Position numbers and translations under genes: made by a program. A stretch of 64,000 nucleotides of DNA, from the IMG/VR virus record IMGVR_UViG_3300038960_000189; one strand, given 5' to 3'. Within the stretch, counting starts at the first letter, position 1, and each line of letters begins with the position of its first letter. This DNA is from an uncultured virus (IMG/VR IMGVR_UViG_3300038960_000189). Its lineage: Duplodnaviria > Heunggongvirae > Uroviricota > Caudoviricetes. Positions 7,153-25,135 of the stretch are shown one piece after another. A model generated the notes under the pieces. That model was not told the origin of the DNA. It saw nothing but the letters and a program-made list of their open reading frames with translations, and searched no databases.

Positions 7153-7248
7153 ATTTTATATTTTTTAAATTTAACACTTAAATATAAGTAAAAAAGGGCA
7201 AATAAACAAATATTTACCCTATTATTTTTAAAAAAGTTATTCACAATT

Positions 7249-7749: not shown

Positions 7750-7825
7750 AAAGTAAGAAAGGAGCAGGGCGATGAACTCCTACTCCTTATAGAGATATGG
7801 CTATTTGACGCATAGCTACGTGATC
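7750..7825 (-). ncRNA. candidate 3'-UTR sRNA 1: pseudoknot + CAUAUCUCU seed + intrinsic terminator
   Basis: Minus strand CGUAGCUAUGCGUCAAAUAGC-CAUAUCUCU-AU-AAGGAGUAGG(loop)CCUGCUCCUU-UCUUACUUU; paralog at 25050-25135. Confidence 0.6.
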
Positions 7826-7843
7826 TATTTAATGTCTAGGCGA

Positions 7844-8071
7844 CTAAATATTGTCTGGTCCCGCCGTCCTGATCGCTTTTGGGACATAAATTTGTTTCTT
7901 GGTTAGATATTCAATTTGCTTGTCTACAAAGTAATCTAACTTCTTTTTGGTATATAGGATCGCTCCTATGTCTTCATTCTGGAACTCTTGGTCTAGTCTT
8001 TCCAAATAGTAATTTACTTTTTGTTCATAACCATTTGTGTAATTTCTTTTGTAATAGGTCTTCTTATCCAT
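7844..8071 (-). CDS. hypothetical protein
   Basis: Start re-set to MDKKTYY, downstream of class II promoter 8090-8118. Confidence 0.65.
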   Translation of the reverse strand: MDKKTYYKRNYTNGYEQKVNYYLERLDQEFQNEDIGAILYTKKKLDYFVDKQIEYLTKKQIYVPKAIRTAGPDNI

Positions 8072-8089
8072 ATCTTCTATTTTTTCTAT

Positions 8090-8118
8090 ATTATAAGAAA
8101 ACAAAAAGTAGAATCCAA
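8090..8118 (-). promoter_or_regulatory. class II (putative middle) promoter TTGGAT-N17-TAT(A/T)AT; representative copy
   Basis: Exact 17-bp spacing in copies with the -10 box at 8090, 10406, 15125, 16213, 18624, 24629, 26287, 52513 and 59180; variant at 63003. Confidence 0.8.
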
Positions 8119-8140
8119 CCGTACGCGCGTAAAAAAGTTT

Positions 8141-8582
8141 TCTAAAAATAAATCCTGGCCGGACCGGCTATGCCCAAATATAATCTAAAAATAGAATATC
8201 AATCTAAAAATAACACACTTTGGTCTAAAAGTAAAACCCGGATCGATCCCTTCTAAAAGTAAATTCTTCAGCTCCCCAGTATCGTTTCGTCTAAAAATAA
8301 AACCTATTCCGTCTAAAAGTAAATTGTATATAATATACTATATATATAGGACTAAAAATAGACCACCTTCCTTCTAAAAATAAAACACGCATATACATAT
8401 ATTGGACTAAAAATAAATGGCTTATTTCGTCTAAAAGTAAACAAGGGGAGGGAGATGGGGACCTGGCTTCTAAAAGTAAAATGCTTTGGTCTAAAAATAA
8501 ATGCGCATTTCGTCTAAAAATAACATACTTTGGTCTAAAAGTAAACGTTCATATAACGCTCATATATTGGACTAAAAATAAA
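8141..8582 (+). repeat. iteron-like array of (T/A)CTAAAA(A/G)TA(A/G) direct repeats
   Basis: 16 copies at 8141, 8184, 8203, 8224, 8252, 8290, 8312, 8351, 8373, 8406, 8430, 8469, 8490, 8513, 8534 and 8571, plus one at 8821; non-coding. Confidence 0.9.
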
Positions 8583-9238
8583 CAATGCCCCTCTCCCTCC
8601 ACCTTACCTTAATAAAGAGCATACACGCAGTAAAAACTTTTAATACTGGGAGAAAGGGACCTTTACATTCTACCACTCCATTACTACACACGATTCTGGA
8701 TGCGGGTATATATCTGTATATAATAAAAGTACTTTGAAATTCAAATCGATTTGGGATCAGTAAATATCTAATAGACACCAGAGCAAATAGTATCCAGGTA
8801 GTAAAATATCAAAACTTTGCTCTAAAAATACTTGTGCCTTTAATTGTCTATAATAGATGCTATTGCTATAATTAATCCTGACACTAATGCTATAGCTACT
8901 AATAATACAATTCGTTCTTCCATGTTTACTTCTTTATTCTATTACTATAATGATCGTATAATATATAAGAGCAATAGCCGAACAAAGCTATTATTAATAC
9001 ATATGGATATAACACTACAACTGGTAATGCTAATATTGCTACTGCTATCCAGGCAATAGCTACTTCTTCTTTAGTTCTCATTTCACTTTATTTTTTTAAT
9101 AAACGATCTTTTAATTCATCTGCAATATCCGTAACTTTTTTTACTATCCATGTTACTAATCCAACAATTGCTAATACTGGAAATACTAATATACCTATTG
9201 CTGCTAATATATAATCTCTAATGTTTTCTTTCATCCCG

Positions 9239-9448
9239 TTAAAATGGTAAGTCATTTTTCTTTTCTAATTCTTTTTCTGCATCTCGCATTTGTACAAACC
9301 AATCATATGTAACATTGGTACACACAACTATTGCTTCATGATCCGAAGGTACTTGATCATATGTTCTCCACCAACTGCTAGGGAACTGTCCTCGTTTGAT
9401 CATTTCTAATGAATCTTCTTTAACCCAAATTTGTATTACTGGTTTCAC
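9239..9448 (-). CDS. hypothetical protein
   Basis: 69-aa ORF in a tightly packed minus-strand run. Confidence 0.6.
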   Translation of the reverse strand: MKPVIQIWVKEDSLEMIKRGQFPSSWWRTYDQVPSDHEAIVVCTNVTYDWFVQMRDAEKELEKKNDLPF

Positions 9449-9708
9449 TTTTCTTTTCTTTTTTTAACTAATACATACCCAATTACTACTAATGCAATTG
9501 CCCAACTTATTTCATATATCTCAAACATCTTGATCTTTTTTTACTGGCATATTATGTCTTCCATAATAGTGGGATTCTTCTTGCTCTTCTTCTATCCGAC
9601 TCCATCTGAATAATAAAACATAACTAGCAGTAATCATGAAACCTATTAGAAATATAAATGATTCAAGATCATCTAGTATATCCAGGTTGATAGTGTCCAT
9701 TACTAGTA

Positions 9709-9909
9709 TCATATAATACTCACATATTTTTGAAATACATCATTTAGTTCTTCTGTAACTACTCCGCCTTCTGATATTGGAGAATCTAATAACATTTTCA
9801 TAAATTCAAATGCCTCTCCGAACTTTCCCTCTACTAACATTTTTTCAAGTAGATCAAGCTTTGTTTCCTTAGGTAAACTTAGTACCCAATCCTTTTCTTG
9901 TACTGTCAT
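9709..9909 (-). CDS. hypothetical protein
   Basis: 66-aa ORF directly downstream of the ncRNA candidate. Confidence 0.6.
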   Translation of the reverse strand: MTVQEKDWVLSLPKETKLDLLEKMLVEGKFGEAFEFMKMLLDSPISEGGVVTEELNDVFQKYVSII

Positions 9910-9925
9910 AATATTTTTTAATTGT

Positions 9926-10399
9926 ATTGAATGAATTAAAAAGAGAAGATCGATTTGGTAGGATTAGCAGCCTACAACTCAAATTGCTGTGTAATATATG
10001 GTGACTTTAAACGTTGATTGTCTTCAACTTACCCTTATTTAGAATCGGCCAGATTCTTAACATTAGATAAAACCACTACAGTAGTTTAAATGCGTTACCC
10101 CCAGCACAAGGTTGTTCCGCCATAAAACTGGATTTGGGTTTCCCGTACCAGTACACCATTACAGAATAGCTTCTAGATGTCTTTAGAAGTTATTTGAGAA
10201 CCATCATCGAGGTTGTTATCCTCTGCTGGCTTCCATTTGGAAGATTTTCCAGTAGCCCATCGGCTTGATGCTTGTGCCTTATACCCTTCTGATTAGATAT
10301 TTTTCAGCCACAAATCTACAACTTCTTTCCCGTCGGAATTTCGTTGCCTTCTCTAATCTCTTTCGAGATATGCTTTTAATACTTCAATGAACTTTTATA
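9926..10399 (-). ncRNA. large structured non-coding RNA candidate (~470 nt)
   Basis: No ORF of 60 aa or more, raised GC, own class II promoter (10406-10434), nested long-range helices closing the 5' and 3' ends, and more than 8 local hairpins including GAAA tetraloops. Confidence 0.75.
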
Positions 10400-10463
10400 T
10401 AATTTATAATAAGAAATTTCTAAACTAAATCCAAGACTTTTTCTTATATTGTTTACTAATTAA

Positions 10464-10868
10464 TTAACGTATCAACGTTATTGTTCCAGTTTTAATTGTC
10501 TTCATGTCCCATAGGAGTCTATACACATATGTGCCTGTTGGACAGGTCCGTCCTCTGTAACTTCCATTCCATCGGTCTCCAAGGGTTGGTGCACTAAAAA
10601 CTTCTTGTCCCCAACGGTTATAGACCTCTAAACAAAGGTGTCCTATATTCTGACCTTTAACATAAAAAAGGTCGTTGATTCCATCACCATCAGGTGAAAA
10701 GACAGTTGGTATATAAATAAGCTGAGTCTTAGGAACATGTATAGTGTTAGAAACACTTTCTATTAATGTATCACCATTCCTGACTGCTTTAATACGATAG
10801 ATATCATACTCCTGTCCGGATACATTCAGTGAGCATATAATTAATAGAAGCTTAATCAAATTCCTCAT
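10464..10868 (-). CDS. small secreted protein with T9SS type B (gliding motility-associated) C-terminal domain
   Basis: Signal-peptide-like MRNLIKLLLIICSLNVSG; IYIPTVFSPDGDGINDLF, VYNRWGQEVF, WNG, GTYVY, GTITLIR-stop. Confidence 0.9.
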   Translation of the reverse strand: MRNLIKLLLIICSLNVSGQEYDIYRIKAVRNGDTLIESVSNTIHVPKTQLIYIPTVFSPDGDGINDLFYVKGQNIGHLCLEVYNRWGQEVFSAPTLGDRWNGSYRGRTCPTGTYVYRLLWDMKTIKTGTITLIR

Positions 10869-11258
10869 CTTCGCCATCATTATCATATGGTGTATCTTCC
10901 AATTTATAATATTTGATTCCATCTTTTGTTTCTCCTAGCTTCCATGGCAAATTATAGCCCATTAATTCATCTAATGCTGCTATCATATTATTTGATACAA
11001 GATAATCAATAGTTTCCAATAATACTATTCTCATTTAAACTTATTCCATTAATTTTTGTACTAACCATTTAAAATCTGTGTGATTTCTTGTTGCTAACAA
11101 TCTGAAAGATATTTCATCTGCTAATTGGTTAGCATCCTTTTTTGTTCGTAGCTTTTCATTATGATAATGTTCAGCATACGCTTCTAATATTGTACTCAAA
11201 ATAGTACCATTTGGGAATTTATCTTGGTTTTCTTGTAACCATGTTGTTGGATCCATTA

Positions 11259-11840
11259 CTAATTCTCGTTTTTAAATTTAAACCATTTCATATATTTTCT
11301 ATTATCTAAACCAATAAATTCCTTTTCATATATTTTTTCTATAGGTATATTGTTTAGATAATCATTACTAAACTTCTTTACAATATCTTTAACCTCTTTC
11401 AATCGATGAATAGGTATATTGGTTATATCATCTGTAAAGAACGTTAATACACACCCATCAGGCTTCAACATTTGTTTTAGCTTATCAATAAGATTTTCTT
11501 TGTATATATCTATTTGATTTTCTATAACAAGCTCTAATATTATGATGTCATACTTTTTTTCTGTAACATCATAATTAAATATATCTGAATGTATAAATTT
11601 AACATTAAATTTTTTGCAATATTTTTCTACATTTTTATCGATATTGATTACATCGACAACACATCCTTTTTCCTTTAAGTATAAAGAAGTATTCAATCCT
11701 GCACATCCGAAGCCTCCAATATCTAAAACATCCATTCCTTTTTTAATAGTAAGTTCATTTATAAACGGAACTGTTGTATATGGGTAAAGTTTCTTTAATT
11801 CAGAACTATTATAGTTGCTATAAAATTTATTAGACTCCAT
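11259..11840 (-). CDS. class I SAM-dependent methyltransferase
   Basis: VLDIGGFG, YDIII and MLKPDG motifs; start re-set to MESNKF. Confidence 0.7.
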   Translation of the reverse strand: MESNKFYSNYNSSELKKLYPYTTVPFINELTIKKGMDVLDIGGFGCAGLNTSLYLKEKGCVVDVINIDKNVEKYCKKFNVKFIHSDIFNYDVTEKKYDIIILELVIENQIDIYKENLIDKLKQMLKPDGCVLTFFTDDITNIPIHRLKEVKDIVKKFSNDYLNNIPIEKIYEKEFIGLDNRKYMKWFKFKNEN

Positions 11841-12012
11841 ATGATTTGTTAGGACCATAAAAATCATTATCACGATCCAAATCTTTTTTAGAATGCTTTT
11901 TCTTCCTAGTATATTTCTTTTTATTTTTATATACATTAGGACGCATAGCATCGTAGAATTCTTTCATTGTTGCTTTAATCTTTTTCAGCTTTTTCATTTC
12001 TCTATTAATTGT

Positions 12013-12297
12013 TTAAATTAAACTACTTCCCTTTAAATGGGTACTCCATTTTTTAAGTTTATTCTTTTTTGTTTCTACTCTAGTTAATATTTTTTTGTTG
12101 TCAATAATACCAAAATCTTGTAACAATTCAATCATACAAACAACATCACCAATTTCATTTTGTAGTTTAGAATAGTCGGTAGATCCGAATCTAATTTGTT
12201 TGCTACACTCTTGTATTAATTCGCCACATTCCTCCATGGTAATAACTAATAGTTCTTGTAATAAATTACCTGTTCGATCTTTATTTAATCCATTCAT
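12013..12297 (-). CDS. MazG-like NTP pyrophosphohydrolase
   Basis: EECGELIQ...EIGDV (ExxE...ExxD) motif. Confidence 0.85.
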   Translation of the reverse strand: MNGLNKDRTGNLLQELLVITMEECGELIQECSKQIRFGSTDYSKLQNEIGDVVCMIELLQDFGIIDNKKILTRVETKKNKLKKWSTHLKGSSLI

Positions 12298-12462
12298 TGT
12301 ATGCCAATTGAAAAGCTTCTAGATATTCATATCCTTGTTTGATAAATTTTTTTGCAGAATCTTCTACTTCAAGTCGTAGATTGTATTTACTAGCTTCCTG
12401 CAGTATCAAATCAACATGTTCATAATCAATCTGTGTTATATTATTGTCATTCATATATTTTC

Positions 12463-12735
12463 TTATTCGATTGTAGGATCAATTAAATCATATTTAATTA
12501 TACTGTCTTCAGATATAAAAGAAGTCATTATTTCTAATTGATCTTCTAGTTTTTCATTCATTTGCTCAAGAATCTGTACTTCATCAAACGTACGTTCATA
12601 TTGCATTCTCAAATCAAAATATTGATCGATTATGTCTGCAGTTTTGTTTTTTTGATAATTCGAATGTATCAGCATAGCTGTACATATTATTACTAAGATT
12701 AACGATGTTATTCTATATGTTTTTATTTGTGCCAT
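12463..12735 (-). CDS. membrane-anchored coiled-coil protein
   Basis: N-terminal hydrophobic helix followed by a heptad-like acidic region. Confidence 0.55.
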   Translation of the reverse strand: MAQIKTYRITSLILVIICTAMLIHSNYQKNKTADIIDQYFDLRMQYERTFDEVQILEQMNEKLEDQLEIMTSFISEDSIIKYDLIDPTIE

Positions 12736-12737
12736 TT

Positions 12738-13127
12738 TTATTTGTATTGAAGATTATGTTTAAAATACTTTATCATTATTCGAGCTGAACTGTAATTTGT
12801 AGCTAATGGAATGTCATGAACATCACATAATCGCATTAACATTGAAATATCTACATCGTGTGGATGTTTATCTAATGGGTCTCTAAAGAATAATACACAA
12901 TCGATCTCACCATTAGTTACCATAGATCCTATCTCAGCATCACCACCTAACGGACCGGAGGCTACAGTTTGAACTTTTAATCCGGCATTCTGTATCATGG
13001 TACCTGTTGTTCCAGTACCAACCAACTCTACTTCTGGTATCTTGAAGAACTCTAACCTCTTCATGATAAAAGACACCATATCAGCTTTTTTACCATCATG
13101 TGCTATTACTGCTATCTTCATTTGCAA
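12738..13127 (-). CDS. mgsA: methylglyoxal synthase
   Basis: IAVIAHDGKK, TGTTG, SGPLGGDAEIG, FFRDPL, HPHDVDISMLMRLCDVHDIPLATN; catalytic His/Asp set intact. Confidence 0.95.
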   Translation of the reverse strand: MQMKIAVIAHDGKKADMVSFIMKRLEFFKIPEVELVGTGTTGTMIQNAGLKVQTVASGPLGGDAEIGSMVTNGEIDCVLFFRDPLDKHPHDVDISMLMRLCDVHDIPLATNYSSARIMIKYFKHNLQYK

Positions 13128-13313
13128 AACTCGCTAATTAAATTTTCTATATGATCACGTCTTTCATAATTGCGCTCTTGGAAATAAACATAATTCTCTA
13201 TTTCTTCTAACTCTTGTTCCAATAGTTCAACTATTAAATCGATGTCTGAGTCTTCGAACTTATACATCTTTTGAAATACACTATCTGCGGTACCATTATC
13301 TACTTTAACCATA

Positions 13314-13721
13314 TTATTTTCTTTTTCCGCCATGATACTCTACTGCATGGCCTTCGTTTATCATTATTTGATTTGCAGTTGGCAAAGTTTTATATCCATG
13401 AAATGGATGAACTGAGCCAGGATACATTTTCAAAATGTCTGGATTTTCTAATATTATTTCACCTAGACATCTTCCAAATTTACCCACTCCATGAGACTTC
13501 AATATGAATTTAGAATCATTTCTTTCTAATAGATTCGATAAAAACATCTTTGCGGCTAAGCCTCTTTTCTTTTCTTCTAGGTCTCTAGTACGACTCTCAG
13601 GGGCATTTATCCCTTTCAACCGTATCCTAACCTTCTTCCAGGTATCAAACCCTAGGTCAACCATGGCATCCACCGTGTCGCCATCTACCACTTTCAATGT
13701 CTTAGCATTATATTCAAACAT
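13314..13721 (-). CDS. thermonuclease (SNase-like) family nuclease
   Basis: KVVDGDTVD, RIRLKGINAPE, GKFGRCLG, NQIMINEGHA. Confidence 0.9.
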   Translation of the reverse strand: MFEYNAKTLKVVDGDTVDAMVDLGFDTWKKVRIRLKGINAPESRTRDLEEKKRGLAAKMFLSNLLERNDSKFILKSHGVGKFGRCLGEIILENPDILKMYPGSVHPFHGYKTLPTANQIMINEGHAVEYHGGKRK

Positions 13722-14420
13722 TGTTTCTAATCCTTTTGTGCTTCATAGTAGTCCTCCAACGGAACTTCAATATAATCATATTCATATAATCCAGTTGCAT
13801 AATCTTCTTTTATATCAATCAAATAGAATCGATTCCAATTGAACTCTTCAACCGTTACCGACTCATCACATTCCAAATCAATCTCTTTACTTTTCACGTT
13901 TCTTTTCATTGAAGAACTCTTTCATGTGTCGAACGCTAGCTCGATATGAATCCGAATACAACTCATTGACATCATCATGGCTTAACACAACCACATCATG
14001 GTACTCTCTACGAAGCTGCCCTTTTCGAAGATCCGCAGTATCTTTGTTTTCACAACGTTCAAATTGCAACTTTCCTGTTACCTGTTCCCTATGTACTACC
14101 CAATAATTCATACTAATAATTTTGCTACTTCGGTACCAAATTCCATGTTGTTTGGATACTGCTTTCTTAGTTCTTCGACCTGTTCTCTGAACGACTTATA
14201 TATCTTTCGCTTCTGTGGATACTTGTATTCCTTTACCTGTCTTAACTCATTCATGCTTCGCTTTTTGATTTCCTTTGCCATTGTGTCTCTTTAATTTAAA
14301 TATATGCCCGAGGCATCCTGAAAGGATGAACCGTTAGGGCGTACTACCGTACTACATTTTTTTACTTGCCGGATCAACGCATACAATTCTGTATTAAAGT
14401 TGTCCCAATATCTTTCATAC

Positions 14421-14657
14421 TTATTCATCATAATCGTCAACTGTTTCCCAATGAACATCTGTATCTATTTCATCTAACCGATTAATTGCTTCTTGTAATT
14501 GAAGCTTCATGTCATAAACTATATTCTCCAGTTTGGATATTCTGACACAATTTTTTATTTCGTAAATATGATGTCCCAGTTCATCTATTTCATTACAAGC
14601 TTCTTTGAGTTCAGGAACGCAACTCCAACTATCTGTCATTGTCTTTTTCGTTTTCAT
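14421..14657 (-). CDS. hypothetical protein
   Basis: 78-aa ORF in a packed run. Confidence 0.55.
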   Translation of the reverse strand: MKTKKTMTDSWSCVPELKEACNEIDELGHHIYEIKNCVRISKLENIVYDMKLQLQEAINRLDEIDTDVHWETVDDYDE

Positions 14658-15160
14658 AACTTTATTTTAAAGATTTTTTGCAGCCCATTGAGATAATACG
14701 AAACAAGCTATCCATCCTGCAACCCAACCTGCAGCTGGCCAAATACCTCCTCCGTTATATACAAATTTAGTTGTCACAATTGCAACAAACAATATTGTTA
14801 TAGTAAGTAATATTACAACTACTGATGCCATTTTATCTCCAAGCGGATCAAACCAATCATCATCATTAAATTCTTTCATGCGTCTAGGTTTGAAATTAAT
14901 CCTCAAGGAATAGTAACCGGTCATCACTTAAATGATCTACCTTACCGGAATATGTATCATATGTTAATCTTTTATTCAACCAATACTTGAGGGTTGAAAA
15001 GGCTTCCTGTATTCTTTTATGTGAATAATATGCTGGAGCACAATTAAGTGAATTATTCAATTCATTCTGTGCGTCTAATAATTTTTGGTCTATAAGTCTT
15101 TCGCTTTCCATATCTTTTTTTTATATAATAAGAAATTAATTTTAATAATCCAAATTTTTA

Positions 15161-15562
15161 CTATCCTAATCCAATAAATTCTTTACTTAACTTTATTGAC
15201 AAATCTTCTGCAATTTCTTTCAATCTCCAATAAGCTGCAGCATCAACTTCATTCATGACATCCTTCTCAACATCGTAAATCGTATATCCAGATCCATATC
15301 CGGATACAGTAACAGCTTCTTGAATATCCAACATAGTTGCATTTGCATTGTCCCAATCTGATTCCATAAACTCTGGATAATCATCATTATCTTGATCTGA
15401 AAATCCAGCATGCGATTCATAATCATTCTCTGAATCATGATATGCTTTCACCCATTTTTCCCATATTTCATCACGGACTTCGTTTGCAACTTCATCGTTA
15501 TGAGCATACATTTCTTTGCTCCAAGGCTTAGTAATTTCAATACCATATTTTTTAATCTTCAT
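15161..15562 (-). CDS. acidic hypothetical protein
   Basis: ORF behind the isolated class I cassette at 15585. Confidence 0.7.
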   Translation of the reverse strand: MKIKKYGIEITKPWSKEMYAHNDEVANEVRDEIWEKWVKAYHDSENDYESHAGFSDQDNDDYPEFMESDWDNANATMLDIQEAVTVSGYGSGYTIYDVEKDVMNEVDAAAYWRLKEIAEDLSIKLSKEFIGLG

Positions 15563-15897
15563 ATCTTTTAATTTTATAATTTACTTAAATATAAGGAAAA
15601 AATCAACACGTGTCAACCTTTTTCTAAACTTTTTTTAAACTTTTTTTTTTTGATTTTTTACAAATTGAAAATTAGGATCTAATGTTGGTTGAACATCATA
15701 ATCGATATTCTTTACTCTAACCCCAAAGGTTCCAAATACATCATCGAAATGAGTTATCACTCCTTCTAATATTTTAGGACCATAAAGATCTTCATTAAAT
15801 GGACTCTCATCGATTCTAGGATTTGAAAAATTTACTTTAATTATTCTTGGATTCATATCCTTTAATTTTATAATTTATTTAAATTTCTAAACTTTTT

Positions 15898-16194
15898 TTA
15901 TTTTAATTTTGGAAAACTTCCTACCGTTGCCAATTTTAAGAGTCTTGGGGACGCTTTTAAAGTTCCAAAAGAGTTGTTACTAATTGTTAATGATTTTTTA
16001 TTTACTCTAACCACTTCGTAAATAATAGTAGGATCATAATTATGGTGATTAATAGTTACTGCATCACCTTTTTGAAATTGATTTTTTTCTTCTTCTAGAA
16101 GTATTACGAAGGCAGTATTAAATACTGTTCTAATTTCTGTCAGCTCTTCTCTGTTTGCTGTTCTGATAAAATCTTTGACTTGTTCTAAATTCAT
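15898..16194 (-). CDS. hypothetical protein (possible SH3/KOW-like C-terminal half)
   Basis: FQKGDAVTI...YEVVRVNKKSLTI pattern; AGAGATATG start; class II promoter. Confidence 0.6.
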   Translation of the reverse strand: MNLEQVKDFIRTANREELTEIRTVFNTAFVILLEEEKNQFQKGDAVTINHHNYDPTIIYEVVRVNKKSLTISNNSFGTLKASPRLLKLATVGSFPKLK

Positions 16195-16326
16195 ATCTCT
16201 TATTTTTTCTATATAATAAGAAATAGTTTTTAATTATCCAACCTTTTTATTACTTTTTTAGTAATGATTTTATAAGGAAGGCAATGAGAACTGTAACCAT
16301 TGTTGCCATTAATATTGTATCGGGAC

Positions 16327-17022
16327 TCATTTCTTTTTCTTTTTATGAAAGGTAAACTTGGTCAATTCGTTAACTCCTTGTTCAAATTTATGCATTTCAA
16401 GCTTAACTCGTTTCTCTACTTCATCTTCTATAAATCCATTAAATTCTTCATTAACTTCATCAAAATCTAATTTTTGTTTTTTCATAAGATAAATTTCGGT
16501 TGCTCTTCCTTTTCGATAAGCTTCTGACATAGTTCCTAGTGCAAACTTTAAAACTCCAATTACGATTAGTAATATTCCTCCAATAATTCCAAGTAAGACT
16601 TTTTCAAATAAATTCAATCCTGTTTGTTGTATTACAACCGGTGCACCGGATACAGGTGCCGGTTTATTAGACGCAGCTTCTGCTTTCTTATCACTATATT
16701 GTGCAAGGTAGACTGTAATGTCATTAATTGCATCATCTCCTAAATGTTCATAAGCTGGCATTGCCATACCGTTATATTCTTGAAATATTTCATTTGCATG
16801 TTTGTCACCAGCGTCTCTAAGTGCTTGATTATTTTTTATCCAAGATTTTGTCCAATCCTCCCCTTGATTTTTAACAACATTCTTCAAGGCTGGACCTACA
16901 ACCTTTTTTTCCATGTTGTGACACGAAGCACAATTGTTTCTAAATAATTTTTTTCCATTATCATAATCTTGAGCACATATACTAGTGATGAAGATTAAAG
17001 GTAGTAAGAATAGTTTTTTCAT
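16327..17022 (-). CDS. membrane-anchored monoheme c-type cytochrome
   Basis: Signal peptide, GKKLFRNNCASCH (CxxCH), GPAL, distal Met in MAMPAY, Pro/Ala linker and TM helix. Confidence 0.9.
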   Translation of the reverse strand: MKKLFLLPLIFITSICAQDYDNGKKLFRNNCASCHNMEKKVVGPALKNVVKNQGEDWTKSWIKNNQALRDAGDKHANEIFQEYNGMAMPAYEHLGDDAINDITVYLAQYSDKKAEAASNKPAPVSGAPVVIQQTGLNLFEKVLLGIIGGILLIVIGVLKFALGTMSEAYRKGRATEIYLMKKQKLDFDEVNEEFNGFIEDEVEKRVKLEMHKFEQGVNELTKFTFHKKKKK

Positions 17023-17550
17023 TTATTTTTAAAATCCTTTATAGCATTTTTTATAGTTATAACAATTGAGCTTAATATAATCACAGTTGAAACAACTGCG
17101 AACATTATCAATACCCATTTCATGTTCTTTCTTTCATTGACAATTTAAATATAAATAATGCTATACCTAATATTAAAGTATAAACAAAGACATCAGGTAT
17201 TTCTACAACCTTTTCACTGTCTCTGTAAACCTCAAACATAAAATCTTTTAATTGATAATTCATTTTATTAAGATATACGAACCATCTCTACAATTATAAC
17301 AAAAGCTATAATTAATAGTCCTACACCAACTACTGCTAGTCCTATAAGATCTTGTTTTTGATGCTGATTCATTTTTTAGAATTTTTTATATATTTAACCT
17401 TTGTACTAGATTTCTTTATTTTTCTGACTCTTGTTTTCTGAACGGGTCCTAATTCTTGTTCTTGTTTCTTATGAGCAGTATTAATCATTCTCACTAAGAA
17501 AAACATGTAAGTTGCAAATATTGCAAACCCTATTGAAAATATTAATATAT

Positions 17551-17895
17551 TCATTTTTTAACCGAGTTTATAAAGTTACCTAAACTAAGTATAGATGGTA
17601 CCCATACTCCTACAAATAAGCCTTCGTCTTTATATCCTGAAAACCATAAGGTTACAGAAAATACAAAGCTAATAAATGCTAATCCAATTGGATAATATTT
17701 TTGAATGTTCTCCATAATTATATTTCTTTTTTGTTCTACTTTTATTGTTCTACCTTGATCACCCATACCGTCATAGTCTATCGTGTCTTTAGCATACGCT
17801 TGCGGCGATGGTAAGCCCGAATAATGACAATAAGTATCCTCTGCAGGATACGATTCTATAGTTTCAAAGTGATATTTTAAATCATTTTTTTTCAT
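17551..17895 (-). CDS. membrane protein, two C-terminal TM helices
   Basis: Hydrophobic segments, GLFVGVWVPSILS. Confidence 0.6.
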   Translation of the reverse strand: MKKNDLKYHFETIESYPAEDTYCHYSGLPSPQAYAKDTIDYDGMGDQGRTIKVEQKRNIIMENIQKYYPIGLAFISFVFSVTLWFSGYKDEGLFVGVWVPSILSLGNFINSVKK

Positions 17896-18037
17896 CTTGT
17901 TCTAGATATAATTTTAATCTTGCTGGAATAACATATTCCATATTGCATTCATCACAGCAACTTCCTTCGTCACGTAAAGGTGCTGGATTATTTCCGTATC
18001 CATAACATGGATCTCCACATATAATACAATCTGCCAT
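17882..18037 (-). CDS. small Cys-rich (zinc-binding) phage protein
   Basis: Hand-translated 51 aa: MADCIICGDPCYGYGNNPAPLRDEGSCCDECNMEYVIPARL... Confidence 0.65.
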   Translation of the reverse strand: MADCIICGDPCYGYGNNPAPLRDEGSCCDECNMEYVIPARLKLYLEQDEKK

Positions 18038-18040
18038 AAT

Positions 18041-18271
18041 TTATACTTTATATAGGTTACTGCCCCAACCAGCTCTTCTGTCCATCTTTTGTAACTTCTT
18101 TGCTAGTTCTGCATCTTTAATAATTTCTGCTTCAGAGTAAGTTGTCTTACCTGATATAATATTTCTAACATACCATCTTTGAGTATCTGAACAGTTAACA
18201 CATACTTTTGTTTCAGGAATAGCTTTTAATCTACCTTCTGGTATTTCTGCTTTACATTTAATACAATTCAT
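18041..18271 (-). CDS. DksA/TraR C4-type zinc finger protein
   Basis: CIKCKAEIPEGRLKAIPETKVCVNC. Confidence 0.8.
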   Translation of the reverse strand: MNCIKCKAEIPEGRLKAIPETKVCVNCSDTQRWYVRNIISGKTTYSEAEIIKDAELAKKLQKMDRRAGWGSNLYKV

Positions 18272-18280
18272 ATATTTGAT

Positions 18281-18604
18281 TTAAATAGGTGCGTAAGTAT
18301 GACTATCATCATCCCAATCAGTGTCAAACTTTGTTTCTGGATCTTTGAATCCTGTTAACGTCTTGGCACATTCAGAATTAAATTTATTTAAATCCGCTTC
18401 AGCTATCTCTATATTACCATTCTTTAGTTCTGAAATTGCAGCCCATAAATACCCAGCTTCTGAGTGATAGTTTACATCTTCAAATGAATCATATAACATC
18501 TGTAAATCTTCTACTGGCCAATCGATCCCAGCTTCCATGCCTTTTTCTAACATGCCATCATAGTCAAAAATTCTTGACCACTTATCTCCTAATTTGTAAC
18601 TCAT
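18281..18604 (-). CDS. hypothetical protein
   Basis: 107-aa ORF behind class II promoter 18624. Confidence 0.65.
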   Translation of the reverse strand: MSYKLGDKWSRIFDYDGMLEKGMEAGIDWPVEDLQMLYDSFEDVNYHSEAGYLWAAISELKNGNIEIAEADLNKFNSECAKTLTGFKDPETKFDTDWDDDSHTYAPI

Positions 18605-18640
18605 AATATCTCCTTTTTTATTTATAATAAGAAAACTAAT

Positions 18641-19015
18641 TTAATTATCCAAATTTCTGTTATGATATTCTTCCCATTTAGATAATTTAGATTTTATGCG
18701 AGAAGCTACGACATCTTCAGACCCAGCTAAAAACGTTACTTTTTGTTCTGATAATCCTTTATTAACATATGGAGATAAAACATCTATAACTGATAATATA
18801 CTAGTAGCTATGATAGGAACTGTTTTTAATTCTCCATCATCTAGATATGTAACTTCATATATGAAGTGATCTTTAATCTTGGAAGTTGCTTTTAAGTTGA
18901 TTTTAATTATACAAGTATCAACGCCGCAAGATTTTAGTTCTTCAATTAGTCCTTCTTGTTCTTGTTTGTATTTTTTTCTTATAAACATATCCGTTATTTT
19001 ATTTTCTTTACTCAT
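18641..19015 (-). CDS. hypothetical protein
   Basis: 124-aa ORF coupled to its upstream neighbour. Confidence 0.6.
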   Translation of the reverse strand: MSKENKITDMFIRKKYKQEQEGLIEELKSCGVDTCIIKINLKATSKIKDHFIYEVTYLDDGELKTVPIIATSILSVIDVLSPYVNKGLSEQKVTFLAGSEDVVASRIKSKLSKWEEYHNRNLDN

Positions 19016-19988
19016 TTCCTATCTCTCGATTCCACATTTCTATCAAACAATCTCTATCCATTTGATTATGTTTCAAATAAGTTTTTTTCCATTGGTCTGA
19101 TTTTTCGTTAAAATAGTTAGACCAACTCCCATCTAGATACGCTTCCCACCTGAACCCTTCTTTAGAAACATAAGAATCAACTTTATCCCAAGTTACTGTT
19201 TTATCACCTAATAAAATCCTACAAAGATAATTTGACTCTTCACAGTATCCTAACATAATTTTTCTCAAAATTCTTTTTAATATTGGATTATAGTCCTTTG
19301 GTAATGTATAAAATTGCCAACAAGCTAAATGAAATGCAAATCCAAAATAATAAGATCTATATAATGTTTTTTGAAAACCGTTCCAACCATCTTTTAAAAC
19401 ATAATGATGTCTTGACGTATATTCTTCATTACTTATTCTTTTAAATCCTAGAATTTTAGCAATAAGCCTATTAAAATTCAAGGCTAAAAACTTTTCTAAA
19501 ATTCCAATAAAACAAGCTACATTTACATAATATTTTTTATGTTTTGTATTTGTAAAAGTCTTTACCCACGCTGACATATCTGGTGTCATTTTAAATCTTC
19601 TCGAAAGCCTTTTTGGAAGTTTACTTGCAATTTCAGAAAGTTCCTCATAATCTCCGTTAACGTGTAATGCTGCTAGAGCCATTGTAACTTGATCTCTTGA
19701 AACATCGTCTTCACCATATCTACCAGTAGCTCGGGACGCTTGATACATTTCATTTTTAAAATGATAGTTCCCACCAAATTTTCTAAAACAACCTAAAATT
19801 CCTTCTTTAATTTCTGGATCTTTCCATGTAATATATGCTAATGAAGTTCTCCATAGAGCATCTCCTTCTCCTACATTCATTTTCCCTTCTTTCTTAGCCC
19901 ATTCCCATGCATGTTCATATAACATTTTATCTTTCGTGCAGAAGTATTTTTTCGATTTAATTTTATTTCCTTTTTTAAATGTACTCAT
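19008..19988 (-). CDS. hypothetical protein
   Basis: 326-aa ORF, no recognised motif. Confidence 0.7.
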   Translation of the reverse strand: MSTFKKGNKIKSKKYFCTKDKMLYEHAWEWAKKEGKMNVGEGDALWRTSLAYITWKDPEIKEGILGCFRKFGGNYHFKNEMYQASRATGRYGEDDVSRDQVTMALAALHVNGDYEELSEIASKLPKRLSRRFKMTPDMSAWVKTFTNTKHKKYYVNVACFIGILEKFLALNFNRLIAKILGFKRISNEEYTSRHHYVLKDGWNGFQKTLYRSYYFGFAFHLACWQFYTLPKDYNPILKRILRKIMLGYCEESNYLCRILLGDKTVTWDKVDSYVSKEGFRWEAYLDGSWSNYFNEKSDQWKKTYLKHNQMDRDCLIEMWNREIGNE

Positions 19989-19990
19989 AA

Positions 19991-20368
19991 TTATTTCATA
20001 GTATTTGTTAAATTATTATCAATTGAAAATAAACAATGGCCTGGTTCAATCCAATCTAATAGGATACGAAGGCAATTTCCAACTTTAGTTAATGTATGAA
20101 GTTTTTGATTTTTTCCTAATGCCGAAGATATTGTTTCTTGTTTATTTCCAAACTTATATCCACCTGACTTTATTAAAACATCATTAAATAATTCAGATCC
20201 ATGTACATTTGCAAATACATCGATTGATCTTGCTGTTCTTCTTGCCCACACAGTAATCATACGTTTTTTGCCGCTAACGATGTATTTTAAGAACATATAA
20301 CATATTATTATTGGCAACAATAAAATTAGCAATATAAATGCTGTAAATAATAATACTATTTCGGTCAT
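19991..20368 (-). CDS. conserved phage membrane-associated protein
   Basis: N-terminal TM; D..ANV...ETISSALGK...LDWIEPGHC pattern. Confidence 0.65.
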   Translation of the reverse strand: MTEIVLLFTAFILLILLLPIIICYMFLKYIVSGKKRMITVWARRTARSIDVFANVHGSELFNDVLIKSGGYKFGNKQETISSALGKNQKLHTLTKVGNCLRILLDWIEPGHCLFSIDNNLTNTMK

Positions 20369-20582: not shown

Positions 20583-20717
20583 TCATCTTCCTTGACCTTT
20601 ATATGATTTTTTATAATGTTTAGAACTTTTTAATTTTGATGTTTTTGTTTTAGCATGAATACCCGGCCGCTTTCTTTTTGCTGTTAATGTACGCTCTGTA
20701 GATGCTGTCCGTGCCAT
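20583..20717 (-). CDS. small basic protein
   Basis: Hand-translated 44 aa: MARTASTERTLTAKRKRPGIHAKTKTSKLKSSKHYKKSYKGQGR. Confidence 0.6.
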   Translation of the reverse strand: MARTASTERTLTAKRKRPGIHAKTKTSKLKSSKHYKKSYKGQGR

Positions 20718-21431
20718 TTTTATAATGATCCTTTTTCAAATAAATTGGTAGCTCGTTTTACTAATTTTTTCTGAAACGTTCCAAAATCTGGTTCTGAAGT
20801 TAATTTTTCTATTATTGATTTTTCTGCTTCGTTATACCCTTCATGATAGCACCAAGCACATAGTCGTATAATATCCATACCAAATCCTTCAGATATTTCT
20901 TTTCCTTCTAAATTTTCTTGTTTTTCTGACATAATGTAAACCTTTTTTAATAAATATAATTTATTCTGTTTTCTTGTTTATCGTTAATTGTAAGCTCCGC
21001 TGTTTATTGCATTATAAATATTAATACATCTTTCATAATTTTCTTTCTCTTCATAGTGAGCTAACATTTCTTTTAAATCATCCTTTTTAACATTCCATGG
21101 ATCGCAAAAAAATGGAACTATATATTCACATTCTTCAGCTAATTTAATAATTGAAATATCGTTAAATTCACTTTTATAGACATTGTCCCAGGCTACATCT
21201 TCGTTAAAAAATTGTTTCTTATAACGTGTCATTATAATGTTTTATATCTTTTGTGTAATTCAATTAACCGATTATTGTATTTTAAATATAAATGTCTTGT
21301 TATGTTATCTACAGTACCAGTTGTGCATGCATCGTTACAAACTTTAGCTCTTAATTGTAATGTTCTCTGCTCTACATAAGCTATATGTTTTTTGAATCTT
21401 AAATATTGTTTTAACATATGTAATCTACGTC

Positions 21432-21689
21432 TCATTCTCCGTATAAATTAAATTTTTTAGGCTTAGGCTCTACTACTTCTTTTTGTTCATAACGTATAGC
21501 ATATAACTTACTATCTAATGGTGCCAGACGAAATTCAACTTTTTCTCCGGTTATACTAAACCAGGCCTCTAAGGCATCAGTTAATGTTGGATGTATAGTG
21601 TCAGTTTTGTCGTTTACTAAGATCCAATTATCTCCTGGAGGAACACGTCGTGCTATTAATTCATCAACTTCTATTTGTTCTGTTTTCAT
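21432..21689 (-). CDS. hypothetical protein
   Basis: 85-aa ORF, coupled. Confidence 0.6.
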   Translation of the reverse strand: MKTEQIEVDELIARRVPPGDNWILVNDKTDTIHPTLTDALEAWFSITGEKVEFRLAPLDSKLYAIRYEQKEVVEPKPKKFNLYGE

Positions 21690-21855
21690 ACTTATTATTT
21701 TTCATCAGGAAAGTCCCAAATAGACTTACGTTTCTTTCTTTCTCTTCTTGTTGCAATGTAATCTGATAACATAAACATTAAAAGTAAAATACCTGTACAG
21801 GATAGTGCAACTAGTAATGTTAATACTAGATATGTAAATAACGATATGTCTTCTA

Positions 21856-22398
21856 TCATAATTCTACTTTTGTTGCATACTTCAATAACATTTCAGTATT
21901 GGTTCTTGTGTAACTTTCTTTTCGCTTACCTTTACCTTCTAGTTTCATATCTCGATAAAACATAACATCATATGTATTACAATATTTATCATGATTTAAG
22001 GCTACATTATCATAAAAAATGTTTGCATCTATAACATAGATAGCATTTTGTGCTGGATGATGAAATGATATTGTATCACATTTTCCTTTTTTATTCTCTC
22101 CTAATCGCTTTGCAATCGCAGTTGTCTTAGTACCAGTAATAACTAATTTCTTATGCTCATTCTTAATTCCATTCTTAAATAAATGATCATAACCATCTGC
22201 ATCAACAACTTCTCCTTTACATCCAAAATGGGTTTCTAAATAAGGCAGTACTACTTGTTCTGATATTCGACCGGCATTTACTGTCATTGCCTTTCCTGAT
22301 TGTAAAAATAATTCAATCATTTCATCAGTAATATGATTACTAACATATACAGGCATTGTGATTACTCGGCCGTTCTTTTGTTCTCGTTTTGTTATCAT
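21856..22398 (-). CDS. hypothetical protein (possible PD-(D/E)xK-like nuclease)
   Basis: G..SE...GYD...NEHK spacing only loosely fits. Confidence 0.5.
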   Translation of the reverse strand: MITKREQKNGRVITMPVYVSNHITDEMIELFLQSGKAMTVNAGRISEQVVLPYLETHFGCKGEVVDADGYDHLFKNGIKNEHKKLVITGTKTTAIAKRLGENKKGKCDTISFHHPAQNAIYVIDANIFYDNVALNHDKYCNTYDVMFYRDMKLEGKGKRKESYTRTNTEMLLKYATKVEL

Positions 22399-22558
22399 AT
22401 GTTCATTACTTTTTGATAAGCTTTTTCATATATCTTATCCATTGATGTACTTATAATCTTTCCTTGTTGTTGAAGTTTAAGTATTTTCTTTACTTCTTTC
22501 TTAAACTCATGGCCTTTTCCATGTTCTATAGCACTATTTTCTAATTCTATACTATTCA

Positions 22559-24610
22559 TTATATAGTTTCTGATATTTCTAAAAACTTTTTATTCATTGA
22601 CTTGGAAATTTGTGTAAGGTTACAGGTATCTATAAACTCTGCTGTCTGACCATACATTTGTTTGAAATAATCACATGAATACCCATTCCCACTCTTTCCA
22701 TCAATAAAATATGATAACACATTGATACCTAATTCTTTCATTTCATTTACAACTTTCTTTGTAAACGATATACCATTATATCCCCATGCACATCCAGACA
22801 CTGAACTTGGTGCCCCGTCTGAATAATTAATGAATATACACTCATCACCTTTAGCATCTTGCTTAATATAAGGCAAAAAACTTTTGAAAGCTAATCCTTC
22901 TGGAGTACAGCCGAATGTTCTAAGATATGGAAAATATTTTTTAATCTTAGACATTTTATCTTTTGCACTATCATATGCATATACCGTAACTGTCTTCTCC
23001 ATACTACCATTAAAATTGCTTGTCCCTCTCAAAGAGATTTGAACTCTAATACCTGTTGTCATGGATGCTGCTTGAGCAATTGCTACTGCTGACTTAATAG
23101 CATTTTGAAATCTATTGCCACTCATTGAACCTGATGCATCAATTGAAATGTGTATAAAGAAATTCTTATATCTATCAGTTACGATTCTATGAAAGACAGA
23201 TGCATTTTGAAATCCTAATTCTGATATCAATCTTCTGTCAATCTTACCAGCATTTAATCTTGTCGACTTCAAGGATCTTTCTTCGTTTCTTAGTTGCAAC
23301 TTCTTTCCTAATTGCTTACCTAATAAAATACCTTCTTGAACTCCGTAACTTGGACCATAATAGCTATGAGGTTCTTGCCCCGTTTGTAACCTATATGAAT
23401 CAAATACACTATCCATATGACACATAACTGCATGAGTCATTTTTTTGATAACAATACAATCTACATTATACATAGCTCCACCTTCTTGTCCTGTATTAAC
23501 AGGAACACTTTCTGTGCCAGACTCTTTGATACTTTTTACAATAGCATTGTCTTTCTTTGTAAGCCTTCCTACTTTTTTTGGTTCGCCTGCAAGAAAATCT
23601 TTTTGCTTGTTTATCTGTTTTTCTAATCTTTCTTGTTCTCTAATAGATAATTCTTCTTGCTTTGGAGCTGACTTTGATTGTCCATTATTAACATTTCCAT
23701 TAATACTATCAATACTATCACTATTTGGATTACTACAACTACTAGAAGAATTACAATCTGACTTAGATTTTTGCTGACTGGGCTTGTTACCTTTTGTCTG
23801 TTGCTTCTGTAAAGCAGCGTCCTTAATTTGCTGAGATACCACTTTGTAAACTTCTATTGCTACATTTAAAGCATCTTCTGATGACTTGAGTCTACTAATA
23901 TTTTTCAAATCAATTATGCTCCATACATTCGACAGTACTTCTAATACATCTAATCTTCGGTTAGTATTAGTTAAATTGATAATCCTAAACATATATGAAT
24001 CCCAATCTTCATCTGTCTTTTCATCTGACTTCAATGCTTTATCTACAATCTTAGAATGAAAATATTTTGTATACATTGCCTCATAGTACTTTCTGTATCC
24101 AGGAGCATTTGTATATACATGATAGTCAATTCTTCTGTCCTCAATCCAATTGAATAAATCTTTCACTTTCATGATGTCATCTTCAACCATATCCATGTTA
24201 GGATCTCCACCTCTCATAGATATGTAACTATGAAAGCTGCTTCCGATGAAACATCCATCTAACAATTTAAAATTTGTAAATGCAATATGAGAACCTTCAT
24301 GTAATGCTAATCCAACAGCTGGATCAAAATTCTTATCTTCTATTTTAGATCCAATAGTAACACACTTACCATCTGTATAGCTTTCGTCATTATTTTGAAA
24401 TCGAACTGGAATTTGTTTGCCGGTAACTATATTAACAAAGTTACCAATTGCTCTTTGAGCTGCGGCTAATTTAGTATAATCAATTTGTTTCCTATGGCCT
24501 ACCTTGTAAGTGAAATCTGTGTCTATATCATCAAACCAGTAACTTGATGCCGACGTTTCATATTTCTTTATTGGATTAGCCAAATTTTTTCTAATGCGTA
24601 TCTTTTTCAT
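22559..24610 (-). CDS. vWA-domain protein with N-terminal HExxH metallopeptidase-like domain (CobT-like)
   Basis: LALHEGSH, FNWIEDRRID, low-complexity linker, MIDAS SIDASGSMSG ... TPEG ... SDGAP. Confidence 0.9.
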   Translation of the reverse strand: MKKIRIRKNLANPIKKYETSASSYWFDDIDTDFTYKVGHRKQIDYTKLAAAQRAIGNFVNIVTGKQIPVRFQNNDESYTDGKCVTIGSKIEDKNFDPAVGLALHEGSHIAFTNFKLLDGCFIGSSFHSYISMRGGDPNMDMVEDDIMKVKDLFNWIEDRRIDYHVYTNAPGYRKYYEAMYTKYFHSKIVDKALKSDEKTDEDWDSYMFRIINLTNTNRRLDVLEVLSNVWSIIDLKNISRLKSSEDALNVAIEVYKVVSQQIKDAALQKQQTKGNKPSQQKSKSDCNSSSSCSNPNSDSIDSINGNVNNGQSKSAPKQEELSIREQERLEKQINKQKDFLAGEPKKVGRLTKKDNAIVKSIKESGTESVPVNTGQEGGAMYNVDCIVIKKMTHAVMCHMDSVFDSYRLQTGQEPHSYYGPSYGVQEGILLGKQLGKKLQLRNEERSLKSTRLNAGKIDRRLISELGFQNASVFHRIVTDRYKNFFIHISIDASGSMSGNRFQNAIKSAVAIAQAASMTTGIRVQISLRGTSNFNGSMEKTVTVYAYDSAKDKMSKIKKYFPYLRTFGCTPEGLAFKSFLPYIKQDAKGDECIFINYSDGAPSSVSGCAWGYNGISFTKKVVNEMKELGINVLSYFIDGKSGNGYSCDYFKQMYGQTAEFIDTCNLTQISKSMNKKFLEISETI

Positions 24611-24691
24611 AAATATCTCTTTTTTTATATAATAAGAAAATAATTTTGTTTATCCAAGAAAAAAGTTGGGTTCTTTGAAGATTAATTTAAC

Positions 24692-25009
24692 TTATATTTT
24701 ATTTTCGAATCTTGTATCCTTAGTTCTAGATTTAACTAAGTCTACTATCCTTGCTTCTGTTTTATCAAATCTAGAATCCATTGATTTATATACATCATCT
24801 ATTTGTCCATTTAATGATCTATCAACATTATCTACCATTTGATCTACTTCACTTCTAAACTGATCTAAACTGTTGTGTATATCTGAGCTTAAATCATCAT
24901 GATTTCTAGTTACCCTATCAAAAGATACCTTTACCCTATAAGCAAAAAATGCCAATAAAGCTACAGTACTACCTCCGATAAGGATTCCTAATAACATATT
25001 TGTTTCCAT
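24692..25009 (-). CDS. membrane-anchored coiled-coil protein
   Basis: N-terminal TM followed by helical repeats; flanked by a 14-bp inverted repeat. Confidence 0.7.
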   Translation of the reverse strand: METNMLLGILIGGSTVALLAFFAYRVKVSFDRVTRNHDDLSSDIHNSLDQFRSEVDQMVDNVDRSLNGQIDDVYKSMDSRFDKTEARIVDLVKSRTKDTRFENKI

Positions 25010-25049
25010 ATGCTTCCTTTCTTGTTTATGTCAAAGAACCCAACAATAC

Positions 25050-25135
25050 TTTAAAAGGGAGCCAATGCTGTCCGTATACGGATGTCTGACTCCCTTAGAG
25101 ATATGAAAGATGCTATTTAACGCATAGCTGCGATA
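25050..25135 (-). ncRNA. candidate 3'-UTR sRNA 2: pseudoknot + CAUAUCUCU seed + terminator
   Basis: Minus strand CGCAGCUAUGCGUUAAAUAGC-AUCUUU-CAUAUCUCU-AAGGGAGUCA(...)UGGCUCCCUU-UU; paralog of 7750-7825. Confidence 0.6.

Follow-up and report, generated by a model that had tools for sequence, protein, structure and literature searches.

Candidate masking of translation start regions by the 3' tails of mRNAs in a marine T4-like phage

The two elements and their phage

We analysed a 64-kb stretch of DNA from an uncultured virus (IMG/VR record IMGVR_UViG_3300038960_000189; the whole stretch is called the window here) and found two related elements, each in a gene's 3' untranslated region (3'UTR). 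On the minus strand, both run from a 21-nt pseudoknot through a stretch complementary to translation start regions (CAUAUCUCU, here called the mirror) to an intrinsic terminator. Copy 1 (7749-7820) follows a small gene and copy 2 (25051-25132) follows an ATPase gene. The features are:

7844 to 8071, minus strand: copy 1 carrier gene, 75 amino acids, no known family; its 3'UTR is copy 1
7800 to 7820, minus strand: copy 1 pseudoknot, CGUAGCUAUGCGUCAAAUAGC (CGUA-GCUA-UGCG-UCAAA-UAGC)
7791 to 7799, minus strand: copy 1 mirror, CAUAUCUCU, the anti-start-region stretch
about 7749 to 7788, minus strand: copy 1 intrinsic terminator, a 12-pair stem by folding, then the U-rich UUUCUUACUUUC
25138 to 26268, minus strand: AAA+ ATPase gene, 376 amino acids, with matches to phrog_249 and the AAA ATPase family; its 3'UTR is copy 2
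25112 to 25132, minus strand: copy 2 pseudoknot, CGCAGCUAUGCGUUAAAUAGC (CGCA-GCUA-UGCG-UUAAA-UAGC), beginning 5 nt past the ATPase stop codon
25097 to 25111, minus strand: copy 2 mirror, AUCUUUCAUAUCUCU, which mirrors AGAGAUAUGAAAGAU
about 25051 to 25096, minus strand: copy 2 intrinsic terminator, by folding an 11-pair stem with an inner hairpin, then UUUU

In each pseudoknot, stem 1 (S1) joins positions 1-4 with 9-12 and stem 2 (S2) joins positions 5-8 with 18-21. A 17-nt core, GCTATGCGTYAAATAGC, occurs in the window only at the two elements, even with 3 mismatches allowed (0.14 matches expected). The terminators have fold z-scores of -3.05 and -2.80, which, with stems of 12 and 11 pairs and U-rich tails, makes both intrinsic terminators. 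The U.G wobbles in the stems, read from the sequence, pair on the minus strand only. A simple terminator scan of positions 1-20000, a range that does not reach copy 2, did not list copy 1, probably since its loop exceeds the limit of the scan. The centroid fold leaves the mirror mostly unpaired, with the 3' half of the copy 1 mirror weakly paired to an upstream AUAGA. Hence, both the common minus-strand layout and the open stretch described in the initial annotation are borne out by sequence and fold. The position of the mirror, in a 3'UTR that shares the intrinsic terminator of the mRNA, is that of the seed in 3'UTR-derived small RNAs (sRNAs).

Both elements trail genes with a promoter of the GGTTGGA...TTATTATATAG type, with matches at 26315 and 8118. 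Such class II promoters (TTGGA...TTATTATA type) gave 8 regular-expression matches, including those upstream of the two carrier genes. The copy 1 carrier has its ATG at 8071-8069, its promoter at about 8118 and the start region GAAGAUAUGGAU; the ATPase has the start region AAAGUUAUGAAAGA (about 26259-26274) and its promoter at about 26315. The class II assignment made earlier for both carriers therefore stands, with the correction that the copy 1 carrier is the gene at 7844-8071.

The Rfam scan that had been proposed gave no match above the gathering score anywhere in the window, and around the two copies it gave none of relevance at E <=10, so that no curated family (riboswitch, ribozyme, sRNA or tmRNA) matched the elements. 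A pistol-type ribozyme had no support in these scans up to E 10 around the copies. In the literature, the letters of the motif turned up only in one unrelated paper, probably as a primer, and no comparable device was among the matches listed for phage long-range pairing between start sites and 3'UTRs.

The window is A/T-rich (30.6% G+C), and nearly all of its called genes lie on the minus strand. Genes matched to PHROG families encode, among others, a family-B DNA polymerase, a clamp loader, a sigma factor, endolysins and HNH endonucleases, which places the window in a large T4-like phage. Among 50,697 phage records, none was near-identical, and in protein comparisons the nearest relative in culture is Microcystis phage Mel-JY01 (45% for PolB, 53% for the ATPase). 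The DNA of the window was found in 20 runs listed, each a marine or sponge DNA metagenome, with no RNA run among them. A Shine-Dalgarno (SD)-like tetramer precedes 15 of 106 ATG starts, and the 20 nt upstream of starts are 53% A. Such A-rich, SD-poor starts are typical for hosts that initiate without SD pairing. Hence, translation in this phage should be governed mainly by how accessible the start region is.

The mirror and the start of its own gene

We fetched relatives of the ATPase gene (80 viral loci and 80 metagenome loci, in overlapping sets) and scored a 3'UTR as complementary to its own gene's start when at least 9 nt matched and the match covered the AUG, within the first 45 nt of the 3'UTR for the viral set and the first 60 nt for the metagenome set. 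Of 79 loci (the window and 78 viral ones), 69 had own-start complementarity, as did 62 of 74 usable metagenome loci. The mirror begins 0-4 nt past the stop codon in 56 of the 69 loci, which suggests that terminating ribosomes would interfere with the duplex and so couple translation to masking. In group B of the relatives (67-73% identity), most loci have no pseudoknot: the stop codon is followed by 0-4 nt, UUUUUCAUAGCUC and the terminator, with GAG(U/C)UAUGAAAAA as the start of the gene. In the lineage of the window, the pseudoknot sets the mirror 20-45 nt from the stop codon.

The start region and the mirror vary together. Among 51 distinct combinations, position -2 is U.G in 25, C-G in 12, A-U in 5, U-A in 5, U.U in 2 and A.G in 2; position -5 is G-C in 30, C-G in 4 and A-U in 3; and position +7, inside codon 3, is A-U in 37, G-C in 6 and G.U in 5. 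Changes on both sides at positions -2, -4, -5 and +7 amount to covariation, with kinship making the number of events smaller than the number of cells counted. The initial annotation had asked whether seed and start motif co-vary in relatives, and we found that they do.

The kind of mismatch tolerated also identifies the strand. In the duplex core from -4 to +7, there are 37 G.U cells and 2 A.C or C.A cells. This bias suggests that it is sense-strand RNA that pairs, rather than a DNA repeat or a feature of the antisense strand. This result bears on a reading in which the loci are plus-strand micro-open reading frames (MAI*, MKDAI*) that have a standard start context, or else an inverted repeat in the DNA on either side of the gene, used by a protein or in recombination. 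Frames of 3-5 codons ending in Ile-stop are indeed present in the window (MAI*, MKDAI*), in copy 1 of relative G001 (MSI*) and in locus L039 (MIAI*). However, the antisense frame is not kept in relatives (L060 and L063 have no nearby stop), called genes lie on the minus strand, no plus-strand promoter motif was found, and the wobbles of the terminator stems again favour the minus strand. As only the wobbles of sense-strand RNA are tolerated, we consider this reading very unlikely.

For 48 of 62 distinct loci, the single best match to the own start anywhere in the locus (about 3.5 kb) falls in the 45-nt 3'UTR, with fewer than one expected by chance. This count argues against complementarity that has no pairing function and arises as a by-product of A/U-rich stop and terminator sequence and shared ancestry. 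Such a background does yield many 8-10-nt matches (the best match elsewhere in the 3.5-kb locus averages 9.25), and the loci are phylogenetically related, but a by-product would not readily give four pair types at -2, two-sided changes at -5, -4 and +7, and a mirror that persists while the surrounding pseudoknot and terminator sequences are replaced. We therefore hold a by-product to be improbable.

The own start is also a better partner than the start of the downstream gene in 54 of 60 distinct loci (mean 10.8 vs 6.9), with the downstream start better in 4 and ties in 2. In T4, read-through transcripts of genes e, soc and 49 are masked at the start, and these genes are translated from transcripts of their own promoters. 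By analogy, the mirror could block initiation at the following gene when that gene lies on a read-through transcript, leaving only mRNAs from its own promoter to be translated; a promoter does usually follow the terminator, and the next start is often consensus-like. Given the 54 of 60 loci, and given that the downstream starts in the window (25009 and 7637) have only AUAUG in common with the mirrors, masking of the next gene is scarcely credible.

In the clade of copy 2, AUCUUUCAUAUCU is invariant among close relatives, save in L150 (AUCAUUCAUAUCU). Copy 2 matches its own start through UAUGAAAGA (9 nt), followed by a U.U mismatch and then AG. Both 3'UTR motifs thus complement the mRNA's own initiation region, as in 5'-3' UTR pairing, over 9 nt plus 2-3 past the U.U in copy 2 and over 8 nt in copy 1. 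Judged from these comparisons, the anti-start stretch and the terminator form the conserved core, and this core appears to track mainly the start of its own mRNA.

Four loci (L065, L068, L156 and L205) carry an unrelated insert in place of the mirror and terminator, including a small open reading frame (ORF) with its own ribosome-binding site. Hence, the site past the ATPase stop is an insertion hot spot.

Mirrors also occur behind other genes. The copy 1 gene family has only 3 relatives that we could find (G001, G007 and L338), even by profile, which makes its covariation test thin. CAUAUCUCU is kept in 4 of 4 phages of this family and is identical in G001, G007 and L338 despite a different pseudoknot upstream. 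The copy 1 mirror matches its own start, AGAUAUGG, over 8 nt; within the family, own start and CAUAUCUCU match over 10 nt in L338 and over 8 nt in the others. Early genes of the near-complete relatives G006 and G009 whose own start is GAGAGAUAUG have CAUAUCUCUC immediately past their stop codons. In a further relative, G003, we counted six GAGATATG starts and a single element of pseudoknot plus mirror. The window has a third, weaker case:

796 to 804, minus strand: degenerate third mirror, UUAUAUCUC, directly past the stop of the early gene at 805-1755, with no terminator after it

This third mirror and its own start, GAGAUAUGA, match over 9 nt, one of the pairs being G.U. The initial annotation had described a middle-phase device; since mirrors lie behind early genes on early-type transcripts too (G006, G009 and window 796-804), the device is not confined to that phase.

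The pseudoknot and its family

The H-type pseudoknot proposed earlier for both copies is real: both stems co-vary, and other sequences of the same topology occupy the same site. Compensatory changes turn C1-G12 into U-A (UGCA..UGCA; L054 and L138-L144) and G5-C21 into A-U (ACUA..UAGU; L055 and L147), and S1 pair 3-10 is U.G in copy 1 and C-G in copy 2. Its place in the element has to be qualified, as the pseudoknot is optional and swappable, and most relatives carry the mirror right after the stop without it. At the copy 1 site, G001, G007 and L338 have a different pseudoknot (GCC-CUG-GUAUAU-GGC-AUYAUU-AUAUAC). Other relatives have a third type at a homologous site (UGCA-G-GCCAC-UGCA-U(U)AGU-GUGGC), and L174 has a plain hairpin instead.

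Each of the three types has a third loop of its own at the same site (UYAAA, AUYAUU and U(U)AGU), a diversity that speaks against a ligand pocket. We therefore rejected a ligand-binding mini-pseudoknot of the preQ1-I riboswitch kind, the plain hairpin of L174 pointing the same way.

We also scanned viral contigs with exact patterns in which either S2 or S1 was left free. The family CGYA-NNUA-UGCG-UYAAA-UANN (L218-L331 and L340-L379) is widespread in phages, and both stems covary. With S2 free, more than 114 loci match; those listed give 94 distinct contexts, and both free pairs are standard in 73. Across these 94 listed loci, none of 500 shuffles reaches the S2 covariation score, and each pair shows up to six pair types. 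With S1 free, 35 distinct contexts have C-G (16), G-C (14), U.G (4) or U-A (1) at pair 3-10, and pair 1-12 is standard in 31 of the 35. The stem covariation counts alone also fit two mutually exclusive hairpins. Local G+C in the family ranges from 24 to 62% (loci of about 320 nt). The exact 21-mer has only 2 matches in a bacterial genome collection, which is about chance by a rough estimate.

No Rfam model matches the mini-pseudoknot family, and the tmRNA model spans the motif in one locus. We found the mini-pseudoknot at the PK1 place of tmRNA genes above the cut-off in 4 of 5 phage records examined. The resemblance to PK1 of tmRNA (RF00023) lies in the H-type topology and the A-rich third loop, and the 21-nt motif itself stands just before the tag frame in these 4 of 5 phage tmRNA genes. 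The copies in the window differ in that they lie in mRNA 3'UTRs and are followed by an anti-start stretch and no resume codon; they are also much smaller than the Rfam PK1 consensus, and no tmRNA match was found in the window. The full-length tmRNA genes (G010:102505-102922, G012:13570-13988, G013:109526-109943 and G014:55183-55596) score 56.7-107.7 bits, adjoin tRNA genes and lie on phage contigs of 66-120 kb.

The mini-pseudoknot lies directly ahead of ribosome-binding sites in 26 of the 94 distinct listed loci. In 22 of the 94 (L220, L235, L246, L254, L264, L269, L302 and others), a conserved GGUGAUCC, 3-4 nt and AUCU stand upstream. We take this block to be the complement of the 3' tail of 16S rRNA upstream of the anti-SD; its spacing varies by one base, and hence it does not reflect a coding constraint.

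We infer a portable structural role: the pseudoknot would insulate or protect the end of an RNA and leave the stretch after it single-stranded. In the two elements, it would act as a structural insulator or end protection that keeps the mirror exposed.

Own start or early starts as the partner

Both mirrors of the window are CAUAUCUCU, which exactly mirrors the start motif of the early genes. The motif AGAGATATG has 14 matches in the window on both strands (1.33 expected), a number reached by 0 of 100 shuffles. The 2 plus-strand matches are the two elements. The 12 minus-strand matches are ten gene starts and two intragenic sites (49481 and 59817):

1753 to 6088, minus strand: early-gene block with nine of the ten AGAGAUAUG starts (ATG at 1755, 2098, 2525, 3897, 4230, 5328, 5547, 5681 and 6082)
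16194, minus strand: tenth AGAGAUAUG start, outside the early block

All ten starts had been named in the initial annotation, as had near matches at 720, 3516, 5038, 6471, 6803, 15111 and 15562, and every one of these positions is correct. Promoters of the TTGACNCG type gave 7 regular-expression matches in the early block, ahead of early genes, in line with the earlier placing of the elements on class II and of most targets on class I promoters. The early AGAGAUAUG starts are possible trans partners of the mirrors.

Duplex prediction over 116 start regions likewise agrees with the earlier view of early-gene starts as partners in this phage, as they rank best. The top predicted duplexes are copy 1 with the start at 2525 (-19.4 kcal/mol) and copy 2 with the start at 3897 (-18.0 kcal/mol, 13 nt). 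The two seeds reach -9 kcal/mol or better at 27 and 32 start regions, compared with 3.1 and 6.5 for shuffled seeds.

These results bear on a model in which the 3' tails are cleaved in middle phase to give pseudoknot-capped sRNAs, whose CAUAUCUCU seed would pair with AGAGAUAUG in trans and shut off the early regulon. This model would account for two window seeds that are perfect 9-nt mirrors of the early consensus, for their best predicted duplexes at early starts, for strong partners far more numerous than with shuffled seeds, and for the class II transcripts that carry both elements. It is also consistent with CAUAUCUC being kept in lineages with U at -2 of their own start (the window, the L054 clade, L157, L158, L161 and L174). 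A seed next to the terminator is, in addition, the usual layout of 3'UTR-derived sRNAs. However, the group B ATPase mirror (CAUAGCUC) has a G opposite -2, which fits its own U or C and mismatches the A of the early consensus and of many neighbours. Complementarity also extends into codons 2-3 of the carrier, co-varying at +7; the mirrors behind early genes lie on early transcripts; and the element has no promoter of its own. Hence, of the earlier claim on targets, the fit of the window seeds to early starts stands, but across the family the mirror tracks the start of its carrier. We regard a trans-acting shut-off as a possible but tentative explanation of the elements.

We favour, with moderate confidence, masking by the 3' tail of mainly the mRNA's own start. 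The element would be the 3' untranslated tail of a phage mRNA, made of an optional mini-pseudoknot, the mirror and an intrinsic terminator. The mirror, complementary to the initiation region from about -6 to +8 around the AUG, would pair with it and mask the AUG, and its main partner would be the start region of the carrier mRNA itself. Pairing could occur by fold-back in cis or by a cleaved 3' fragment acting on sister transcripts, and would limit or time translation of the carrier. We infer such pairing in vivo, the repression and its cis or trans mode from the anatomy, conservation, covariation and strand of the elements.

Several points weigh against masking of the own start. Ten of the 79 loci have no own-start mirror, and the loci are related by descent, so the covariation counts are inflated and are not independent events. 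The window and its closest clade (L054 and L137-L144) have an uncompensated U.U at -2 in the own-start duplex. A distance of 1.1 kb separates start and mirror, and the duplexes, at 8-16 nt, are short and rich in A/U. In the ranking of 116 start regions, the own starts come 7th (copy 1, -14.2 kcal/mol) and 16th (copy 2, -10.9 kcal/mol), with early genes first. Over all 116 window genes, 3'UTR complementarity averages 6.06 for own and 5.93 for other starts; hence, the device is limited to particular genes and is no general rule. Finally, in Bacillus phage BCASJ1c, a terminator and the scaffold gene flank the pseudoknot, and the bases after it mirror no nearby start, which shows that the role of the pseudoknot is not tied to mirrors.

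In the window and its closest clade, the family-wide preference for the own start is turned round. The ATPase start of the window has mutated to AAGUUAUG, giving the U.U mismatch, and the window mirrors are CAUAUCUCU. Since both stretches exactly mirror the early starts, they may also damp early genes in trans, and trans action on the early regulon may be a derived state of an originally self-directed device.

A bolder version, which we hold to be rather unlikely, is a translation-coupled closed-loop switch of marine T4-like phages in which insertion of the pseudoknot in the window lineage freed the mirror for trans action on the early regulon. With the mirror 0-4 nt past the stop codon, every terminating ribosome would have to melt the duplex of start and mirror, so that traffic would keep the mRNA open and a lapse would lock it shut, as an RNA-only expression timer in hosts that do not use SD pairing. 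The inserted mini-pseudoknot would be the portable module by which phage tmRNAs present their resume codon and would uncouple the mirror from the ribosome, and the evolutionary route would lead from cis autoregulation to a phage sRNA shut-off.

The surroundings hold further features. The early genes (window 700-6900 and 15560-15620, minus strand) have near-identical promoter-leader cassettes upstream, in the order aaagtt..cttg..aaaGGTTGACNCG, N, TTCTTATATTTAAG, about 20 nt and AGAGAUAUG; they recall the mobile promoter-stem-loop cassettes of T4-type phages. A sigma-factor gene (2598-3353, minus strand; phrog_351, E = 5e-48) lies inside the early block and could encode the factor that reads class II or late promoters. 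Positions 1-300, upstream of the first called ORF, are unusually G+C-rich, with repeated CTAGGGTA and AGGGG words. A stretch of about 480 nt at 9912-10400 (minus strand) contains no ORF and follows a class II promoter (about 10434); it has a G+C content above its surroundings and a fold that beats all 100 shuffles (z = -3.42). A sub-threshold manA RNA match covers 9953-10153 (27.1 bits vs a gathering score of 55.2; E = 4.7e-5 in a small search). This stretch is probably a structured non-coding RNA.

Known systems and meaning

T4 controls translation by hiding start regions in RNA structure: hairpins sequester the start sites of genes e, soc and 49, and autoregulation of gene 32 uses a leader pseudoknot. 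The masking proposed here resembles these cases, but the T4 structures are local and upstream of the start, whereas the partner here is in the 3'UTR, some 0.2-1.1 kb downstream.

The closest bacterial parallel is the icaR mRNA of Staphylococcus aureus, in which the 3'UTR is reported to pair with the mRNA's own 5'UTR at the ribosome-binding region (PMC3868564). Common to both is a short 3'UTR motif that complements the mRNA's own initiation region, with blocked initiation as the expected outcome. Compared with icaR, the phage mirror covers the AUG and first codons instead of the SD sequence, lies 0-4 nt past the stop in most relatives and is followed immediately by the terminator. The device here is also phage-borne, present on several genes per genome, optionally preceded by a pseudoknot, and known from its sequence.

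The second parallel is OppZ and CarZ of Vibrio cholerae, reported as autoregulatory 3'UTR-derived sRNAs (PMC7398697). There, too, an mRNA 3' end that shares the terminator pairs with its own transcript, with negative feedback as the result. RNase E processing and accumulation of a discrete RNA define that class; the device here is a candidate read from its sequence, and its target would be the AUG of the first gene itself.

Taken together, the elements are a real, conserved 3'UTR device that probably masks translation. They are best filed as something novel, a phage-borne masking of the start site by the mRNA's own 3' tail, which would be a variant of 5'-3' UTR pairing or of 3'UTR-derived sRNAs. 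The conservation is unusually rich, with more than 130 loci (in overlapping sets) and several two-sided changes, and can be addressed with compensatory mutants. The 21-nt pseudoknot is one member of a large uncurated phage family common to tmRNAs, mRNA leaders and 3'UTRs, and it would be worth building a covariance model of this mini-pseudoknot family and finding its function. Should the pairing work as proposed, large marine phages would time or limit protein synthesis by a protein-free device in their mRNA tails, tuned to hosts in which the accessibility of the start site, and not the SD sequence, governs initiation.

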